Below, one piece after another: positions 6,008-62,279 of a DNA stretch of 64,000 nt. The stretch's first letter is position 1; each line of letters starts with the position of its first letter. The position numbers and the translations under genes are program-made. Origin of the DNA: an uncultured Acidobacteriota bacterium (lineage in GTDB: Bacteria; Acidobacteriota; Vicinamibacteria; Marinacidobacterales; DATDRI01). The stretch is taken from assembly GCA_963697355.1 (NCBI GenBank), contig CAVONV010000002.1, positions 56,372 through 120,371 on the forward strand, given 5' to 3'. A model generated the notes under the pieces. The model worked only from the letters and a program-made list of their open reading frames with translations. It was not told the origin of the DNA and made no database searches.

Positions 6008-6078
6008 TATAGCACAGGGGCAACGGTCAAGCCCGCCTTCGTTGACGGTCCCGATTCACTGTCGCCGACTTCAACGCG

Positions 6079-7995: not shown

Positions 7996-8040
7996 GATTC
8001 TTGAGTACTTGGGTACTCGAGTTCTCGAGTACCTACCGTG
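7996..8040. repeat. Degenerate GAGTTCTT-type tandem repeat with a small palindrome between convergent genes
   Basis: tgagattcttgagtacttgggtactcgagttctcgagtacc contains the hairpin GAGTAC ttgg GTACTC and octamer-like units shared with sites at 18.5, 25.2, 50.7 and 55.8 kb. Confidence 0.4.
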
Positions 8041-18471: not shown

Positions 18472-18526
18472 GGTAACTGAGTTCTCGGGTTCTTGAGTTC
18501 TGGTTTCTCGAGTTCTTGAGTTCTTC
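18472..18526. repeat. Tandem degenerate octamer (GTTCTTGA)n, about 6 units
   Basis: gttctcgg gttcttga gttctggt ttctcga gttcttga gttcttcc. The same motif recurs at 7996, 25101, 25231, 50661 and 55820. Confidence 0.5.
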
Positions 18527-18979
18527 CTATAGATACTGCCGATAGACCGGGTTGGAGCGGCAATAGTCTTGAATCGCTCTGGTGATGATGAGGGCATCCT
18601 CTGGTGTGGGGTCGAGAAAATACAAACCAAACCCGGGCGGGAGGCTGTGAACCGGGTGCGCTTGATACGGATTGACCCAAGCCACGACCGCGCTGACGGA
18701 CAGACGTCGGTCGTTTCCCGGAACGTAAAAACTCACTTTGAGAGACTCGTCTTTTGTGGGTAACAAGTCCGTGGCCACGTAGGCACCTTTTAGTGAGAGA
18801 TCCAGCATCAAGCCATCATGTTCGACTCGAGACCGGAGGAGACAGCAGCGGCGTATGAACGGGATTCGGAGCGTGCGGGGAACATAAGGAGGGGAGGCAT
18901 TCTTTCCCGACCTCCGGGATAGTCCTTTTCTGGAAGCCGGAGTCACAATAGCTCTCAGAATCGTCTGGGCACAAGACAC
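18527..18979 (-). CDS. PilZ domain protein (putative)
   Basis: Arg-rich segment RRCCLLRSR followed by LDLSLKGAYV (D-x-S-x-x-G), then a beta-rich C-terminus. The spacing is atypical, so this is a tentative call. Confidence 0.45.
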   Translation of the reverse strand: MSCAQTILRAIVTPASRKGLSRRSGKNASPPYVPRTLRIPFIRRCCLLRSRVEHDGLMLDLSLKGAYVATDLLPTKDESLKVSFYVPGNDRRLSVSAVVAWVNPYQAHPVHSLPPGFGLYFLDPTPEDALIITRAIQDYCRSNPVYRQYL

Positions 18980-24180: not shown

Positions 24181-24210
24181 AAGACTAGAGGGCTGTCCCC
24201 TTAGTCTTTT
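24181..24210. terminator. Hairpin plus short T-run between convergent genes
   Basis: aagacta-gagggctgtcccct-tagtctt followed by tt. It overlaps the UbiA-like stop and shares the GGCTGTCCCC motif with 12913-12926. Confidence 0.35.
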
Positions 24211-25100
24211 GTTAGTAGGGCGGCTAGGAGGGTAAGCGCGAGTGCCGTGTTGGTGGCCAGGATCCAAACGACGTTCGACGCGAGCGCCGGTATCGGGATG
24301 GGCTCATCGGGTTTGGAAAAAGCCCAGCGAAGAGGCTGAGCGAGTAACAAAGAGGGAATCACGGCGACGAGGCAGGACCAAGGCAACCAATCGAAAACGA
24401 TCGCTGTGACGATGGCTCCCGGAACCGAGACTGCGGCCAAGGCGTAGATGAGAGCTGCCGCTTTCCGGCCCAGCAAGATAACGAGATTCCGTCTTCCTCC
24501 TTTGCGATCGGCTTCCTCGTCGGGGAACTCGTTCAAGAGAAGCAAATTGAAGGTCATGAAGAATGCGGGAACCGATGCGGCGATGGCGACCTGGCCGAGC
24601 GTCCCACCTTGAATCATTGCCGTCCCCACGACGGGTAGGGCGCCGAGTCCAAGGCCGGCGGCCATCTCACCAATACCTATGCGGGCGAAAAGGTCGGTGT
24701 AGGCCAGAACACAAACGGCCCCGGTAAGGAAAAGGGGCAGAAGGAACCATCCCACGTCAATGAGGAACCAGACGCCGCAAGCTGCGCCGACGGCAGCCGC
24801 AACGTAGCCGACGGTCCAGGCCGTGCGCTGGCTCAAGTGGCCGGCTGGAAGCGTTCCACTCCCACCGGAGAACGGTGTCCGTTCCGTGTGAAGATCAATC
24901 CCCGTTCTCATGTCACTTGCTTCGTTGAGGGCGTTGACGGCGATGTGCAGAGCGACCAAACCCACGAGCGCTATGATCGTGGCCGACCACCGGAAACTTC
25001 CTTCATAGGCCGACGCGGCTGCCCCTGCCGCGACGAGGGTCACGGATAGCGCTAGAAAAGGTGCACGGGTCACACTGAGAAGATGTTGAATGGCTGCCAT
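24201..25100 (-). CDS. UbiA-family prenyltransferase-like integral membrane protein
   Basis: 8-9 TM helices. Asp-rich motifs NALNEASDMRTGID and NEFPDEEAD. Confidence 0.55.
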   Translation of the reverse strand: MAAIQHLLSVTRAPFLALSVTLVAAGAAASAYEGSFRWSATIIALVGLVALHIAVNALNEASDMRTGIDLHTERTPFSGGSGTLPAGHLSQRTAWTVGYVAAAVGAACGVWFLIDVGWFLLPLFLTGAVCVLAYTDLFARIGIGEMAAGLGLGALPVVGTAMIQGGTLGQVAIAASVPAFFMTFNLLLLNEFPDEEADRKGGRRNLVILLGRKAAALIYALAAVSVPGAIVTAIVFDWLPWSCLVAVIPSLLLAQPLRWAFSKPDEPIPIPALASNVVWILATNTALALTLLAALLTKD

Positions 25101-25290
25101 AACTGCCTCTTATCAAGAACTCAAGCCCGCCTCCGTCGGTGATGCCGATTCGTCGCCACCGACTTCGGCGAGGCCTCGCCGAAGCCGTTGGTTCGCAATC
25201 TCGAGCACCAACGGCGGAGGCGGGAATTCAAGAACTCAAGAACTCAAGAATTCAAGAACTCGAGAGTCGAGAGATTGTAGCGATCTTGCG
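25101..25290. repeat. Composite imperfect palindrome containing CTTCGGCGAGGCCTCGCCGAAG and four CAAGAACT octamers
   Basis: It lies in the divergent promoter region between the UbiA-like gene and galK. The core hairpin is the 22-bp perfect palindrome cttcggcgagg/cctcgccgaag. It is homologous to segments at 55951-56000 and 56205-56225. Confidence 0.5.
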
Positions 25291-25348
25291 CGACAATAAA
25301 GAATGATAACATTTGCGGTTCCGTGGAAGTCTGAAACCTGCAAAGAAG

Positions 25349-26590
25349 ATGTCTTCGATACCCGATAGCCGTCGTCTTCGAGCTTTGGAGAGGACGTTCA
25401 AGGTGTCCTTTGGGTCTGCCAGAGGAGAGCGCGTGGCTAGGGCCCCCGGCCGAGTCAATTTGATCGGGGATCATACCGACTATAACGGCCTTCCGGTCTT
25501 TCCCATGGCTCTCCAACGAGACATCACGATCCTTTTTCGTCCACGAGAAGATGCTACGGTTCGTATCGCCAACGTGGATTCGCGCTTCCCTTCTTTTTCC
25601 GTCGTGCTCGACCAGCAGATCGAACCCAGCACCCGGGGTGATTGGTCGAACTACGCTCGGGCCGCGGGGCAAGCGCTCAGCCGATCTCATGGACTGCTGA
25701 AGGGCTTCGATGGCGTTGTCTCGGGAAACATACCCGTCGCAGCGGGACTTTCCTCCTCCTCTGCCATGGTCGTGGCAGTAGCCATGGCGCTCATTGATGT
25801 CAACTCCATCTCCATCAAACCGCTTCAGCTCATGAGTCTAATGGCTCGTGCCGAACATTACACAGGGGCCGAAGGAGGCGGGATGGATCAAGCCATCTGT
25901 TTGGGCGGGGTCTCGAACGCGGCTATCAAGATCGAATTCGACCCCTTGAGACTGACGCCGGTACCTGTGCCGAAGAAGTGGTGTTTCATCGTTGCCTTTA
26001 GCGGGCTCCGGGCCGAGAAGTCGGGCGATGCCCGTGAGGCCTATAACAGCCGGGCCCGCCAATCGAGGGCAGCCATAGAGACGCTTTCTCAGCGCTTTCC
26101 CATAGCCCGCAGCTATCGAGAGCTCATTGCCGACACCCGTACCGACGAGTTGCTTGCGACCGCGCAGGACCACCTCGACGATCTCCTGTTCCGCCGGTTT
26201 CGCCACGTCGTCACGGAAGCGGCTCGTGTTGATGAAGCCGGCCGAGCCATGGAGGATGGCGATATTCGGGAGTTCGGCCGCTTGATGAGCGCCTCGCACA
26301 GAAGTCTGAGGGATGACTTCGAGGTGAGTTGCTCGCAGCTGGATGAGCTCGTCGAAGCCGCCATGGATGCCGGCGCGGAAGGTGCTCGGTTGACCGGGGC
26401 TGGGTTTGGTGGTTGCATCGTTGCTTTGTGCTCTTCGGACCAGGTGCCCGCTTTCATGTCGTTCATTGCGGAAAACTACTACCAGCAACGAGGTCGAACG
26501 GAGTCGCTCGCGGACGACGTTCTTGTGGCCGAGCCCTCGCCTGGCGCCTCCGTAACCCCGTTTCGATTGACGCCGTACATGGCTCAATGA
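25349..26590 (+). CDS. galK: Galactokinase
   Basis: GRVNLIGDHTDYNGLPVFPMAL signature and GHMP kinase PVAAGLSSSSA motif. Confidence 0.85.
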   Translation: MSSIPDSRRLRALERTFKVSFGSARGERVARAPGRVNLIGDHTDYNGLPVFPMALQRDITILFRPREDATVRIANVDSRFPSFSVVLDQQIEPSTRGDWSNYARAAGQALSRSHGLLKGFDGVVSGNIPVAAGLSSSSAMVVAVAMALIDVNSISIKPLQLMSLMARAEHYTGAEGGGMDQAICLGGVSNAAIKIEFDPLRLTPVPVPKKWCFIVAFSGLRAEKSGDAREAYNSRARQSRAAIETLSQRFPIARSYRELIADTRTDELLATAQDHLDDLLFRRFRHVVTEAARVDEAGRAMEDGDIREFGRLMSASHRSLRDDFEVSCSQLDELVEAAMDAGAEGARLTGAGFGGCIVALCSSDQVPAFMSFIAENYYQQRGRTESLADDVLVAEPSPGASVTPFRLTPYMAQ

Positions 26591-28161: not shown

Positions 28162-31161
28162 CTATTGGCCCAGTTCTTTGCGACAACGTCGGATGTGCTC
28201 GTTCTGCTCGCGTTCGCCCGGTGCGTTAGTTGCCCCCTCTTGCCAGGCTTTGTGTGCTTCCTCGGTACGGCCGAGAGCCGCGAGCGCTTTTCCCTTCCAA
28301 AAAAGAGCACGGGCTTCTTGGGGTTGGGAAGGCCTTCCGACGTGTAAGTTGTCCGGATAGGATAGTGCGCGCTCAAAGTCAGCGAGCGCCTCTTTTTGGT
28401 TTCCACGTTCGAGCTCGAGAATACCCCGCTCGATATGAGCCGTGGAGAAAAGGCCCCAAGCGTTTCGATCACCTTCCCAGTTGGAGAACGTCGCTGATTC
28501 GAGGAGCTGGATCGCGTCGTCGTATCGTTTCGCTTCGCTATAAGTTCTTGCTAGTAGAGACGTCACGTCGGCCCGGCGTCTGTTCTCAATGGGCATGGTC
28601 TCGAGGAGTTGGATAGCCGCGTGCTTGTCGTTCCGCTCAACTTGAATGCGAGCCAGATCGCGGTAGAGCACTTGGTCGTTGGGGCGTGCCGCTACCGCTT
28701 TCCGGTAGGCCTCGGCGGCGAGTGACAGGTCCCTTCCGTGATTCCAATGATACAAACCCAAGTTGCGATGGGCCACACTCAACGTTGGGTTCTTTTCCAC
28801 TGCGGATGTCCATTGCGAAACAGCGTCGTCGATCCGTCCCAAGCCTGCGTAGAGGTTGCCGAGGTAGAGGTGGGCCCTTCCGTCTTCAGAATTTTGCTCG
28901 AGAGCGTACTGAAGGATCTTGATGGTTTCCGGGCGCGACGGAAAGACGTAGTCGCTCGCAAGAGAAGAGGCCAGGTCGAGAGCCCGTTTCGCCTCGACGT
29001 CGTTACCCAAGAGCGATTCGTAGTAGGCCAAGTAGTAATGAGGCAGCGGTCGTTTTGTTCCTTCAGGGACATCATCACATAGAGTGGCTGACAGCAATCG
29101 TACGGCTTCGCCTGGAAGTTCGAGCTCTCCGAAGAACAAAACGAGCTCCAAGAAGGTGAACTCGTCTTCTCCAACGAAACGGCGTGCTTCAACGGCGAAT
29201 CGGTCCAGAGGGGTCGCGCCCAAAAGCGCGAGAACGGCTCGAGGTACTAGCCGAGTCGTACCGCTAGCGATGGTCTCATTGCAAAGCCTCTCGGCCTCCT
29301 CTCGGTGGCCTGACGCATAGAGGGCAACGAGCATCTGTTCAAAGAGCCGGATTCGGTCTGTGCCACCTTCAGTGTATCCAGCTCGGAATGCTTCGAGCGC
29401 TCCCTTGGGGTCGCCTTGGCGCATCTTGGCCCTTCCTACCAAGCTGTAGCCCAATGCGGTCGTTCCCTGGAGCCTCGTCGCCTGGTAGCCCATATGAACA
29501 GCCTTATCGAGTTCCCCCTGATGGAGCTTCACGACGCCTGAGAGGTACCACGCCAGTCCGTGACGGGGATCCCTGACCAATACCTGTTCCAGATGTTCGA
29601 CCGCGGAGGGGTGACGGCCTGCTTCACCATCGAGGACTGCCATAGAGAAGTGGGAGGCGGTGTGCCCGCCATCTTGTTCCAAAGCTCTTTCATACCACTC
29701 CCGCGCTTGAGAGCGATTCATTTGACGATCGAGCTTCTGTCCTCGGAGGTAGGTTTCCTCGACAGGCAGTGAGGCTCGCTCGTTGATGGCAGGCTCTTTC
29801 GGGATCCCAACTTCCGGGACTTCGAGCGGCGACCTGTAAGAAGCGAGGGCTCTATCCTTGCCATCCTTGATGGTGAGAAGGAAAGATGCCTCGCCAAGGT
29901 CCTCCAATTGAACGGTAACAGGTTCATCTGGAGTCAGGTCGACAGTCTTCAAACGGGAATACCCCTCGCCGCCACTGATTTCGATGTTAGCCCCGGGATA
30001 GGCGGCGGTCGATAAGATTCTCAGCTCCAGGTCTCGGCCTCGTGCGATCCGCTCCACCGCGATATCCTTCGTCGCGTACTCGAAACCTTGACCGAGTCCG
30101 AAGACGGGGCACCACCATTCCCGCCAGCGGACCTCTTGGCCCGGATACAGCATGCCGTAGTCTGCTTGTGTAGGTAGGGGGCCACTTTGTACCTCGATAT
30201 AGGGACCGTCTTCGTCGGTCAATACGGATTGGCTGGCGAGTCCGGACTCGGAGTTCCCCCAAGTCCAAGCTTTCTTGCCGGGCGTGACGTGGTGGTTGGC
30301 GACTTGGATGATGCCGTAGTCCCTATCGACATCGTATGCGCCAAAGAAGTCGAACTCACAATCGTGAGCGAATATGGACGTGGGATCGGGATAGTTCTTG
30401 AGCCAAGTGAGATCGCGGCCCTCGTGGATCGGCCAAGTAAAGAAATTCTCACCTTCGTGGTCGGTGCCGAGGGTCATGGGGTAGATGAAGCGCGTCCCTT
30501 CACGGTTGGGAAAGGCGGTGTTGTTCCAGAAGTAGTAAGAATGCGTACCGTCCGTGGGGTTGGATATCGAGAACTGTTCGTCGAGATAGGCACGACCGGG
30601 ATGAAGCGTCAAGCGTACCGTCCATAGGGTCCGAAAATTCATCTCCGTGTTCCCGATGACGAGAGATGCAGAGCCGTCGGGGTTGTCGACCGTCACGACG
30701 TCGACCGGAGAATAACTCGTTACCGTGTGACCGGTGGGCCCGCGGTTCCATTCGATCCCGCCCGAAATCCAGGCGCCTCGAAGGGCAATCAATCCCGGCT
30801 TGATCACTTGGTTGCGATAGAACATTTCCTCGCCGCGTCGCTTGTCGTAGACGGATTGAATCCGTCCGCCTATTTCCGGAAGACACATGACACGCAAGTA
30901 CTCGTTCTCTAGAAAGGCCGCCCTGTAGGTTCGGTCCTCCAATGTCGACGAGAGGTTGTCCTGCATCGTGTAGGGATAGATGAGGGATTCCTCCAATTCG
31001 TAGAATCGAGGATTGATGTCGTCGGGGTACAAGCCGTAAGTCGGGATGACCACGTCTTCGAACCAAGCTCGAACCGGTGCATCGGTCGCGGCGGCGAGTT
31101 GGGGTTGTCCCAATGCGCAAGCGACAACAAGAAAGCAGAAGATGGGTGTAGGGCAACGCAT
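28162..31161 (-). CDS. DUF5107 domain plus TPR-repeat protein, secreted
   Basis: Signal peptide. N-terminal domain of about 370 aa matching the DUF5107-type pattern. At least 10 TPR units follow, and the ORF is about 1000 aa. Confidence 0.65.
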   Translation of the reverse strand: MRCPTPIFCFLVVACALGQPQLAAATDAPVRAWFEDVVIPTYGLYPDDINPRFYELEESLIYPYTMQDNLSSTLEDRTYRAAFLENEYLRVMCLPEIGGRIQSVYDKRRGEEMFYRNQVIKPGLIALRGAWISGGIEWNRGPTGHTVTSYSPVDVVTVDNPDGSASLVIGNTEMNFRTLWTVRLTLHPGRAYLDEQFSISNPTDGTHSYYFWNNTAFPNREGTRFIYPMTLGTDHEGENFFTWPIHEGRDLTWLKNYPDPTSIFAHDCEFDFFGAYDVDRDYGIIQVANHHVTPGKKAWTWGNSESGLASQSVLTDEDGPYIEVQSGPLPTQADYGMLYPGQEVRWREWWCPVFGLGQGFEYATKDIAVERIARGRDLELRILSTAAYPGANIEISGGEGYSRLKTVDLTPDEPVTVQLEDLGEASFLLTIKDGKDRALASYRSPLEVPEVGIPKEPAINERASLPVEETYLRGQKLDRQMNRSQAREWYERALEQDGGHTASHFSMAVLDGEAGRHPSAVEHLEQVLVRDPRHGLAWYLSGVVKLHQGELDKAVHMGYQATRLQGTTALGYSLVGRAKMRQGDPKGALEAFRAGYTEGGTDRIRLFEQMLVALYASGHREEAERLCNETIASGTTRLVPRAVLALLGATPLDRFAVEARRFVGEDEFTFLELVLFFGELELPGEAVRLLSATLCDDVPEGTKRPLPHYYLAYYESLLGNDVEAKRALDLASSLASDYVFPSRPETIKILQYALEQNSEDGRAHLYLGNLYAGLGRIDDAVSQWTSAVEKNPTLSVAHRNLGLYHWNHGRDLSLAAEAYRKAVAARPNDQVLYRDLARIQVERNDKHAAIQLLETMPIENRRRADVTSLLARTYSEAKRYDDAIQLLESATFSNWEGDRNAWGLFSTAHIERGILELERGNQKEALADFERALSYPDNLHVGRPSQPQEARALFWKGKALAALGRTEEAHKAWQEGATNAPGEREQNEHIRRCRKELGQ

Positions 31162-31984: not shown

Positions 31985-32130
31985 CGATTACCCGGCGGGT
32001 TTGACGTGGGCGGGTGGCAAGTAGCGACTGCTTGACTGCCCGCCTACGCGGTATTTGATTTCTACTCAGCTTCGGCGGGTCCGCTGTAGCCTTGGCGTAG
32101 GCGGACTCGACTGCTTGACCGCTTGCATTG
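31985..32130. repeat. Copy of the mosaic intergenic repeat (GACTGCTTGACTGCC and CTTCGGCGGGTCCGC modules)
   Basis: gcgactgcttgactgcccgcctacgcgg ... cttcggcgggtccgctgtagccttggcgtaggcggactcgactgcttgaccgc. These modules are shared with 50.6-50.75 kb. Confidence 0.4.
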
Positions 32131-50332: not shown

Positions 50333-50449
50333 CATTTACACGGCACCTGGAGATGGACGTAGGTCCGACTTCACCGGTCGGGCGAGAGTGATCATAGATG
50401 CCGATCCTCACTGCTGGCTGAGGGATTCGGGCCGCTTGCAGGGTATCAA

Positions 50450-50750
50450 GGCGCTCCATGGTCAGAAGCCAGTAGGCAGCCAGTAGAAGTGACCAGAGGT
50501 CAGTGGGCGGTAGGCGGTGGACAGTGAAGAAAGAGGCCAGGGAACAGTGGCCAGTGAAGAAGAAAGTAGGCGGTAGGCCGTCCGCCTATTCAAGCTTAGG
50601 GCGGACCCGCCGACCGCCTTCGCATGAGCTTCGGCGAGGCCTTGACGTAGCTTGGGCGAAGGCGGGCTCGAGTTCTTGAGTTCTTCGCCGGAGAGGTTCC
50701 AACTTTGACTGCTTGACTGCCCAGTAAGGACATACAACAATCCGAAACGA
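50450..50750. repeat. Mosaic intergenic repeat block L (CTGG-unit tandems, a 43-nt core, a palindromic hairpin and octamer modules)
   Basis: The 43-nt core 50583-50625 is 42/43 identical in inverse orientation to 56005-56047. Flanking modules are also shared in the same inverse order. Confidence 0.55.
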
Positions 50751-52052: not shown

Positions 52053-52139
52053 AATCCTCGGTGGCATTCGACATGAAATAGTAGCAACAAGCTAGGACAC
52101 ATCTTCACCGTTCGCTGTCTGCCGCCTACGGGCTCCTGC

Positions 52140-52330
52140 TTCACTGTCTACTGCCGACAGTCCCAATAGCTTCTTCTTCACTTCCAACTAACTTGCCGCG
52201 GGCAGGGGCAAGGGCACGGGCACGGGGCATCCGCACGAAGTTAGTCTCTGACGCGGCGGACGTCCTGACCGTGCAGATGCTGGTCACTGGCTGCTGTTTA
52301 CTGATTCTGGTGACTACTCTTCAGTCCATC
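52140..52330. repeat. Two-copy element: G-tract run plus conserved hairpin (copy 1)
   Basis: gcggggcaggggcaagggcacgggcacgggg (5 G-tracts), then the hairpin catccgcacg / cgtgcagatg. It is about 85% identical over about 130 bp to 62120-62260. Confidence 0.5.
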
Positions 52331-55707: not shown

Positions 55708-55789
55708 TTTCGGCTCCTGTGGCGGTCTTCCCTTTTTTGCCGCTCGGTCTCTTCCAACAGACTTCCCTGCAATTGTACGTTTTCACCGA

Positions 55790-56330
55790 ACCGTCAAACA
55801 GTCAAAGTTAGGACTCCTCCGGCGAAGAACTCAAGGACTCGAGAAGACAGTGATTCGACCACTATGTCGACTGGATTTGTGCCCTTGACTGACCCAACTG
55901 GTCACTGTGAACCCGCCTTCGCTCATTGCGTCACGCTGTTGGCTTCCGCCTCCGTCGGCGGCGCCGATTCTTGCCACCGACCTTGGCGAGACTCGCCGAA
56001 GCGAATGCGAAGGCGGTCGGCGGGTCCGCGCTAAGCTTGAATAGGCGGACTGCCCACTGCCCACCGCCCACCGCCTACTTTCTTCTTCACTGGTAACTGG
56101 TCACTGGCTTCTGGCCTCTCTTCTTTTGCTGGTCACCCGCCTTCGCCGCCAAGTCTTATCATCGGCGGCTACCGCCTCCGTCGCTGAATCGATCGATGGG
56201 CCAGCGACTTCGGCGAGTCTCGCGGTAGCTCCGCAAGGGAGTCGGTCGAGACGGAGCGTAGGCGGACTGGTCACTGATCACTTCTACTGTCTGCCTACTG
56301 GCTTCTTTCCACTAACGGCGTATACTTGTG
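55790..56330. repeat. Mosaic intergenic repeat block R (internally duplicated unit of about 220 bp), inverted relative to block L
   Basis: Unit A is 55900-56125 and unit B is 56129-56330. They share cgccttcgc..ccgcctccgtcg..cttcggcgag.ctcgc..taggcggactg..cactg..ctggcttct. There is no ORF with coding-like composition. Confidence 0.55.
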
Positions 56331-62099: not shown

Positions 62100-62279
62100 A
62101 AAAAAGTCTCACGTGACTGGCAACTGTTCGCTCTTCCAACTAACTAGCCTATGGCAGGGGCAAGGAGCAAGGGATCGGGCAGGGGCACGGGGCATCCGCA
62201 CGAAATTAGTCTCCGATGCAGTGGACGTCCCGGCCGTGCGGATGCTGATAACTGCTCACTGGCTCCTGGCCTCTTCTCC
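62100..62279. repeat. Two-copy G-tract plus hairpin element (copy 2)
   Basis: ggcaggggcaaggagcaagggatcgggcaggggcacgggg, then the perfect hairpin gcatccgcacg / cgtgcggatgc at 62192-62202 and 62235-62245. Confidence 0.5.

Follow-up and report, generated by a model that had tools for sequence, protein, structure and literature searches.

A palindromic block between divergent UbiA-like and galK genes as a likely copy of a dispersed, hairpin-forming intergenic repeat family

Short tandemly repeated repetitive (STRR) sequences are tandem heptamer arrays in the spacers of heterocystous cyanobacteria. STRR sequences are mentioned in PMC2670836. Structured repeats of another kind, the REP and BIME elements and the REPINs with their RAYT (Y1/HUH) transposases, have been described in Enterobacteria and Pseudomonas (PMC3333891, PMC2817692, PMC3116915, PMC3733652). 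A REP is defined by size as an imperfect palindrome of 20 to 40 bp with many extragenic repeats. Catalogued REPs carry an unpaired GTAG or CGTC tag at the end of the hairpin, and those of the CGTC type have stems of 8 to 9 bp and loops of 4 to 5 nt (PMC3733652). Miniature inverted-repeat transposable elements (MITEs) include Correia/NEMIS and RUP (PMC3184786, PMC3049150), and the BOX elements of Streptococcus pneumoniae are built as boxA-boxB(n)-boxC (PMC3049150). REP, BOX and ERIC-type elements have been named as acting at the RNA level when they are co-transcribed.

The locus considered here lies in a stretch of 64,000 nucleotides, called the window throughout, from an uncultured bacterium that probably belongs to the Acidobacteriota; the named homologues of its Dus protein come from Vicinamibacteria (Acidobacteriota) and are about 65% identical. 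The window is part of contig_25032 (867 kb) in ENA assembly ERZ25039600. A first-pass annotation of the window had singled out a palindromic block between a UbiA-like gene and galK, in terms that implied a composite regulatory element of the two. Our analysis makes it likely that this block is instead one copy of a dispersed, non-coding, hairpin-forming repeat family of intergenic regions, similar in kind to REP/BIME elements, REPINs or MITEs. A limited literature search turned up no earlier account of a family like this one.

The UbiA-like gene (24201-25100, minus strand, PF01040) and galK diverge from ATG codons at 25100 and 25349, respectively, and the block does lie, as annotated, within the promoter region that they share, a spacer spanning 25101-25348. 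Its most striking feature, CTTCGGCGAGGCCTCGCCGAAG at 25163-25184, is a perfect 22-bp palindrome that none of 100 shuffles matched and that is the longest in the window, the runner-up having 14 bp. This palindrome, which reads CTTCGGCGAGG followed by CCTCGCCGAAG, is the hairpin called H3 in the family and the symmetry centre of the galK copy. The inverted CCGCCTCCG segments reported around it were found at 25127-25135 and 25215-25223, and the perfect terminal inverted repeat extends to 10 nt, with CCCGCCTCCG at 25126-25135 and CGGAGGCGGG at 25215-25224 (both listed on the plus strand) agreeing at 10 of 10 positions and pairing with each other in both RNA folds. Between these ends and the palindrome lie two more hairpins: on the plus strand, at 25136-25162, TCGGTG and CACCGA enclose a 15-nt loop in the fold and correspond to H2 of the type-1 unit described below, and on the minus strand, at 25185-25214, CCGTTGG and CCAACGG enclose a loop of 16 nt. 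The inverted repeat as a whole measures 99 bp (25126-25224), with 47-nt arms that are 70% complementary, and the original figure of about 150 bp for the imperfect palindrome was too generous.

Octamers of the form CAAGAACT flank the block, as had been noted, at 25114, 25229, 25237 and 25253, and the window holds nine where two are expected, but the supposed run on the left consists of only about 1.6 units. Because the octamers to the left and right stand in direct and not inverted orientation, they cannot extend a cruciform. The left-hand units, TCAAGAACTCAAG at 25113-25125 (minus strand, with the octamer match at 25114), abut the structured unit; the leader of the UbiA-like gene occupies 25101-25125 on the same strand, with a Shine-Dalgarno sequence, AAGAGG, that is the reverse complement of 25106-25111. 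To the right, a plus-strand octamer array of GAACTCAA/AAGAACTC fills 25224-25279, starting with 5.2 copies of a period of 8 that TRF places at 25224-25265 and passing into degenerate CTCGAGAGTCGAGAG; the array, whose (AAGAACTC)n stretch covers 25224-25275, was grouped with 55809-55858 in repeat family D1. The galK-proximal segment that follows on the plus strand (25289-25348, AATGATAACATyTGC ... AAGAAGATG) lies outside the repeat and is conserved in relatives (alignment A2).

The suggestion that 25101-25290 could form hairpins or a cruciform was well founded, as folding goes well beyond chance for the DNA and for RNA of both strands. The 190-nt block folds as DNA at -45.6 kcal/mol (z -4.7). 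Plus-strand RNA reaches -63.2 kcal/mol (z -6.3), with an outer stem closing three hairpins, and minus-strand RNA reaches -66.0 kcal/mol (z -7.0) as a single long hairpin. In the family alignment A1, 92% of the cells in the proposed helices (outer stem, H2, H3 and the 3' hairpin) are paired, and sliding the partners by one to three columns lowers this value to 27-49%. H3, CTTCGGCGAG-N-CTCGCCGAAG, is almost invariant in that alignment. The H1 position, in turn, is held by three self-complementary sequences (CCGTTGA/TCAACGG, CCGTTGG/CCAACGG and GCCGCC/GGCGGC), and the H2 stem of type 2 shows a compensatory change from G-C to C-G. Changes on both sides of a pair are limited to two pairs and are matched by many shuffles, and covariation is suggestive at best because the 10 aligned sequences represent about four independent types.

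The core of the galK copy recurs in several other spacers of the window. In a self-comparison, 25127-25185 aligned with 55946-56002 (85% over 59 nt) and with 56172-56229 (71%), in agreement with the homology to repeat block R that had been noticed at the outset, and a further match was found at 6027-6072 (76%). The family is built from a basic module that joins a CCGCCTyCG head to a hairpin whose stem has 6 to 7 bp, and the canonical unit consists of two such modules head to tail and then the CTTCGGCGAG/CTCGCCGAAG hairpin, all of it closed by an outer stem of CCGCCTTCGC/GCGAAGGCGG. Units of type 2, found in metagenome contigs L085 and L087 and at 56136-56267 of the window, differ in the sequence of the first two hairpins. 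The galK copy draws on both types: its core is 90% identical to positions 36-93 of type 1, and the minus strand of its right third gives the type-2 5' module, CCCGCCTnCG-CCGTTGG..CCAACGG, by comparison with L085, L087 and the window unit beginning at 56136. On our reading of these alignments, 25126-25224 would be a rearranged copy with two modules inverted around the central family palindrome, an arrangement that lets it fold into either a single long hairpin or a four-way junction.

A profile derived from alignment A1 recognized the galK copy at 25127-25190 (E = 5e-14, and E = 1e-8 on the opposite strand) and found five sites in the 64-kb window, counting this one. Block R contributes a full type-1 unit (55911-56052, plus strand), which is 88% identical to the metagenome consensus, and the type-2 unit at 56136-56267 on the same strand, both matched by the profile. 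The profile also matched a short minus-strand unit at 50580-50666, made up of the outer stem, H3 and a 3' hairpin (GTCCGCC..GGCGGAC) and followed by octamers at 50667-50685, and a degenerate plus-strand core at 6027-6076 (E = 0.013), which is 76% identical over 46 nt to 25121-25166. A short related unit, CCGCCTACGC..TCGGCGGGTCCGC..GCGTAGGCGGAC, lies at 32040-32106 on the plus strand between direct CGACTGCTTGAC repeats. All window sites are intergenic, and the genes that flank them are divergent, convergent or tandem. The same profile had no match in the control set, which comprised 902,598 bases around galK in other phyla, or in 42 kb of orthologous loci from relatives.

Copies also exist beyond the window. 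When JGI metagenomes Ga0316192-98 were searched with a pattern common to the three window cores, eight genuine copies were obtained, along with one chance match (L090) that lies within G+C-rich sequence and has no further similarity. Six of the eight carry the 145-nt type-1 unit at 93-100% identity between unrelated flanks. The genes next to the metagenome copies are unrelated housekeeping genes and encode a protein kinase, a GT9 glycosyltransferase, a lipid A acyltransferase, a polysaccharide deacetylase, a response regulator, a D12 methylase and DnaJ, and recurrence of the core in such unrelated spacers (among them those of DnaJ, the lipid A acyltransferase and the response regulator) leaves the idea of a composite UbiA-like/galK regulatory element without support. 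Searched for as an exact pattern, CCGCCTCCGTCGGNNNNGCCGATTC had no match among the GTDB species representatives, and family patterns had none in scans of viral contigs.

The units are closely tied to tandem arrays. Heptamers border the units of types 1 and 2, CTGGTCA running directly into CCCGCC at one end and GGCGGA into CTGG(C/T)(C/T)n at the other, and AAGAAnTC octamers bound the galK copy, the copy at 50580-50666 and the one in L087. Direct repeats are found on both sides of units, with TCAAGAACTCAAG before and AATTCAAGAACTCAAG after the galK copy, CTGGTCA on either side of 56136-56267 and CGACTGCTTGAC on either side of 32040-32106, and all of them are units of a tandem array. As the flanks of every copy are preexisting arrays, a target-site duplication would look no different from the arrays; the window's best candidate is the CGACTGCTTGAC pair around 32040-32106, although TTGACTGC is also an array unit (50705-50720). 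Elsewhere in the window, octamers occur at 7996-8035, 18476-18527, 50667-50685 and 55825-55858. The first two of these arrays, which are GAGTTCTT-like, almost fill the convergent spacers between MatE and M20 peptidase genes and between LDcluster4 and PilZ genes, respectively, and begin directly after stop codons with no structured unit adjoining. The window also contains a second, unrelated family at 52138-52324 and 62133-62254 (83% identity over 88 nt), in which a GGGCAnG hexa- or heptamer run is followed by GCATCCGCACGAAgTTAGTCTC...GGACGTCC...GTGC(A/G)GATGCTG.

Orthologous loci show how recently such blocks can come or go. A galK search of 185,579 GTDB species-representative genomes found relatives that were at best 57% identical, mostly in Gemmatimonadota with some Planctomycetota and Acidobacteriota MAGs; no octamer or core motifs were present in these loci, and with a best match of 57% they served as a negative control only. 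A far closer relative, represented by contig L093, has a galK that is 82% identical in protein and DNA and the same divergent gene pair, separated by a spacer of 77 bp. Where the window has 201 nt, L093 has 30 nt, with neither unit nor octamers, so that about 171 bp, octamers and unit together, are extra in the window. The 60 bp before the galK ATG and the GAGGA Shine-Dalgarno sequence of the UbiA-like gene are retained in L093. As the only readable spacer from a relative does not contain the element, the composite regulatory reading finds no support in this comparison either, and from these alignments the galK element appears not to be a conserved part of the UbiA-like/galK promoter region. 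At the 82% identity of L093, an insertion in the window is formally indistinguishable from a deletion in L093. Two other relatives are uninformative on whether the repeat is present, as one contig (L091, 98%) ends inside galK and the other (L092, 86%) stops shortly to the right of where the array would lie.

The second informative comparison is with L094, which is about 95% identical in nucleotides across the SurA-S4-Dus-M14-DUF2784-OEP region. Both block R units are absent from it, and the unit at 50580-50666 is replaced by other sequence, while the surrounding heptamer arrays and the octamer module are kept. L094 also lacks the sequence corresponding to 52138-52324, one of the two copies of the unrelated family, and to 50333-50432. 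In a more distant relative (L096, Dus 71% identical), the SurA-S4 spacer is 13 bp, compared with about 420 bp in the window. On this evidence, structured units come and go within short spans of evolution.

Three observations on these spacers can be added. Block R of L094 has an extra hairpin of its own, GGGAAAAAGGGGACCTGTCCCCTTTTTCCC (L094 5400-5450), that is absent from the window and is a lineage-specific spacer insertion. The 100 bp directly after the SurA-like stop codon (50333-50432) hold the core-like pieces GGTCCGACTTCACCGGTCGGGCGAG and ATGCCGAT and may be another decayed unit. Composite repeat blocks at 50440-50740 (minus strand) and 55780-56330 (plus strand) stand inverted to each other around about 5 kb with the S4-domain gene, Dus, the M14 peptidase and DUF2784. 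Because gene order is the same in L094, this bracketing is probably coincidental and not the mark of a composite mobile unit.

What the block does to its neighbors follows from where it sits. The UbiA-like gene is convergent with the next gene and is therefore monocistronic. Its Shine-Dalgarno sequence occupies 25106-25111. The insertion begins 14 nt upstream of that sequence, and the repeat block opens at 25113, so that the promoter must lie within or beyond the block. Judged by this layout, the repeat must be either promoter DNA or a highly structured and very stable 5' leader hairpin of the predicted UbiA-like transcript. On the other side, the conserved 60 bp in front of galK remain intact. 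For galK, the public gene call begins at GTG 25433 and gives 385 aa; ATG 25349 and the next 28 codons are conserved in two relatives, L092 and L093, and the protein is therefore probably 413 aa long. Apart from galK, at least one indel within 14201-35100 separates the window from the version of the contig in ENA (L001): the DUF5107-TPR gene, an intact 999-aa open reading frame in the window (28162-31161) and in the Logan assembly, is two genes of 313 and 686 aa in L001 (3941-6939). A homopolymer or consensus error in one of the versions is the probable cause.

Since a relative does without the galK-site copy and the family is scattered through spacers, the block is best seen as an inserted repeat and not as a purpose-built control element of galK. 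These data are consistent with a model in which the repeat is a nonautonomous element whose copies would be gained and lost by a process acting on DNA hairpins. By analogy with REPINs (PMC3116915, PMC3333891), the likeliest agent would be a hairpin-recognizing single-strand transposase (HUH/Y1, RAYT- or IS200-like) supplied from elsewhere in the genome, and the main alternative agent would be recombination or slippage within the short tandem arrays. No transposase was found among the window open reading frames of at least 180 aa that were scanned or on the contigs that carry copies, which makes any mobilizing enzyme hypothetical. A bolder version of this model, which we put forward as doubtful, would have units and hepta- or octamer arrays as the two halves of one undescribed replicator system of an uncultured marine-sediment lineage. 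The arrays would be landing pads for, or products of, a hairpin-recognizing copying enzyme, and the inverted dimer at galK would be an active, REPIN-like replicating form rather than debris.

The galK-site copy may still have a host-level role. One possibility is that co-transcribed copies of the family work as RNA, by stabilizing, terminating or insulating mRNA, and that the copy at galK is kept because it shapes the 5' leader of the UbiA-like gene. The very stable RNA folds of both strands are compatible with such a function, as are the frequent position of units and octamer arrays directly after stop codons between convergent genes and the necessary location of the galK-site copy in or upstream of the UbiA-like leader; on our reading of the fold, the H2 stem of type 1 can also be extended by G-U pairs on the plus strand only. 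Several results point the other way. No hairpin is followed by a U-tract, and a crude consensus scan of 25000-25450 returned no terminator or promoter sites, including none of the sigma-70 type. Units occur in both orientations relative to their neighbors, that at 50580-50666 being antisense to SurA and S4 and that at 55911 sense to OEP. Rfam 15 held no meaningful match to the galK element, block R or the metagenome copies at gathering-score or permissive thresholds, the best being isrG with 15.8 bits against a gathering score of 100, and gain or loss between genomes that are about 95% identical speaks against strong site-specific selection. We regard an RNA-level explanation as unlikely.

It is also conceivable that no transposition is involved and that the arrays are the primary unstable feature, with units spreading and vanishing by recombination, gene conversion or replication slippage between them. 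Every unit is embedded in register in CTGGnnA heptamer or AAGAACTC/TTGACTGC octamer arrays, arrays persist at orthologous sites that have no unit and differ in their number of repeats, and the mosaic of short, type-1, type-2 and inverted forms is itself suggestive of recombination. Yet an identity of 93-100% among 145-nt units at six unrelated loci is more easily produced by copying than by local slippage, and the absence of both arrays and unit from L093 indicates that the whole block arrived at or left the galK locus together. On balance, this account is quite improbable.

A dedicated cis-regulatory element of the UbiA-like and galK promoters, be it the operator of a dimeric regulator or a supercoiling-sensitive cruciform switch, is the least probable explanation: the block occupies the sole promoter region available to both genes and has a perfect 22-bp palindrome and a strong DNA fold, but palindrome and core also adjoin unrelated genes, the 77-bp ortholog spacer does without them while the conserved galK-proximal segment lies outside the element, the crude scan for sigma-70-like promoters was empty, no gene for a LacI/GalR-type regulator is found among the neighbors, and a gal operator would be a palindrome conserved in gal promoters and restricted to the regulon, whereas L093 and 80 galK loci of other lineages do not have this one. 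Three further candidates were dropped: an integron attC site for want of R''/R' core sites, a CRISPR array for want of spacer-repeat periodicity, and a riboswitch for want of conservation upstream of galK orthologs.

With the inserted-repeat reading preferred, the striking palindrome becomes a false lead, in that it is not evidence for a regulatory switch of galK or the UbiA-like gene. What the locus documents is a family of interspersed repeats, each with several hairpins and linked to hepta- and octamer arrays, from a lineage that, judged by galK, has no close GTDB relative. Such repeats expand spacers of 13-77 bp to 250-1000 bp and are able to rewire promoters and leaders; transcription of the UbiA-like gene now has to begin inside one of them or pass through it. 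They also break short-read assemblies, and several relatives have contigs that stop at such a repeat or close to one. Should there be a cognate transposase, REPIN/RAYT-type biology would reach into a new phylum with this family.

Among described systems, STRR sequences offer the nearest counterpart to the arrays. The heptamer CTGGTCA resembles TTGGTCA, which we take to be the STRR2 unit, a likeness that is a lead only. Octamer families and an association with structured units are, to our knowledge, not described features of STRR sequences, and the phylum is different. BOX elements share with this family a modular construction in which outer modules pair and inner ones vary in number or order, and they too are intergenic and can be co-transcribed. 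In contrast, there is no sequence similarity between the two, and BOX elements are richer in A+T and have no association with hepta- or octamer arrays.

The resemblance to MITEs goes further. The units are non-coding and intergenic, about 100 to 150 bp long, and dispersed as near-identical copies; they have terminal inverted repeats, CCCGCCTCCG/CGGAGGCGGG with 10 of 10 matches at galK and CCGCCTTCGC/GCGAAGGCGG in canonical units. Filled sites in the window correspond to empty ones in L093 (the UbiA-like/galK spacer) and L094 (two other spacers), an insertion polymorphism as in MITEs, and, also as in MITEs, units can land in promoters or leaders. Unlike MITEs, they have no unambiguous target-site duplication and no known parent IS with matching ends, and they contain several independent internal hairpins rather than a simple pair of long terminal repeats.

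REP-type elements differ in more of their details and agree in more of their organization. The modules here, at about 37 to 48 nt, and the units, at 99 to 145 nt, are longer than a REP, with five profile matches in 64 kb and copies on eight metagenome contigs. Stems of 6 to 7 bp and loops of 12 to 16 nt depart from the catalogued forms, and there is no consistent GTAG or CGTC tag: CGTC is present in CCTCCGTCGG before H2 but overlaps the stem, and it is absent before the paralogous hairpin CCGTTGG..CCAACGG. Nor was a RAYT gene seen among the scanned window open reading frames or on the copy-bearing contigs, the units are embedded in hepta- and octamer arrays, and the host is of an uncultured, probably acidobacterial, lineage. 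At the same time, like REP and BIME elements, the units are extragenic, G+C-rich imperfect palindromes that occur in multiple copies and cluster into mosaic composites, and, as with REP, BIME and REPIN sequences, relatives differ in their presence or absence. The inverted pairing that defines a REPIN is found at galK as well, where the arms 25127-25173 and 25174-25220 are 70% complementary and the minus strand folds into a single hairpin of -66 kcal/mol.
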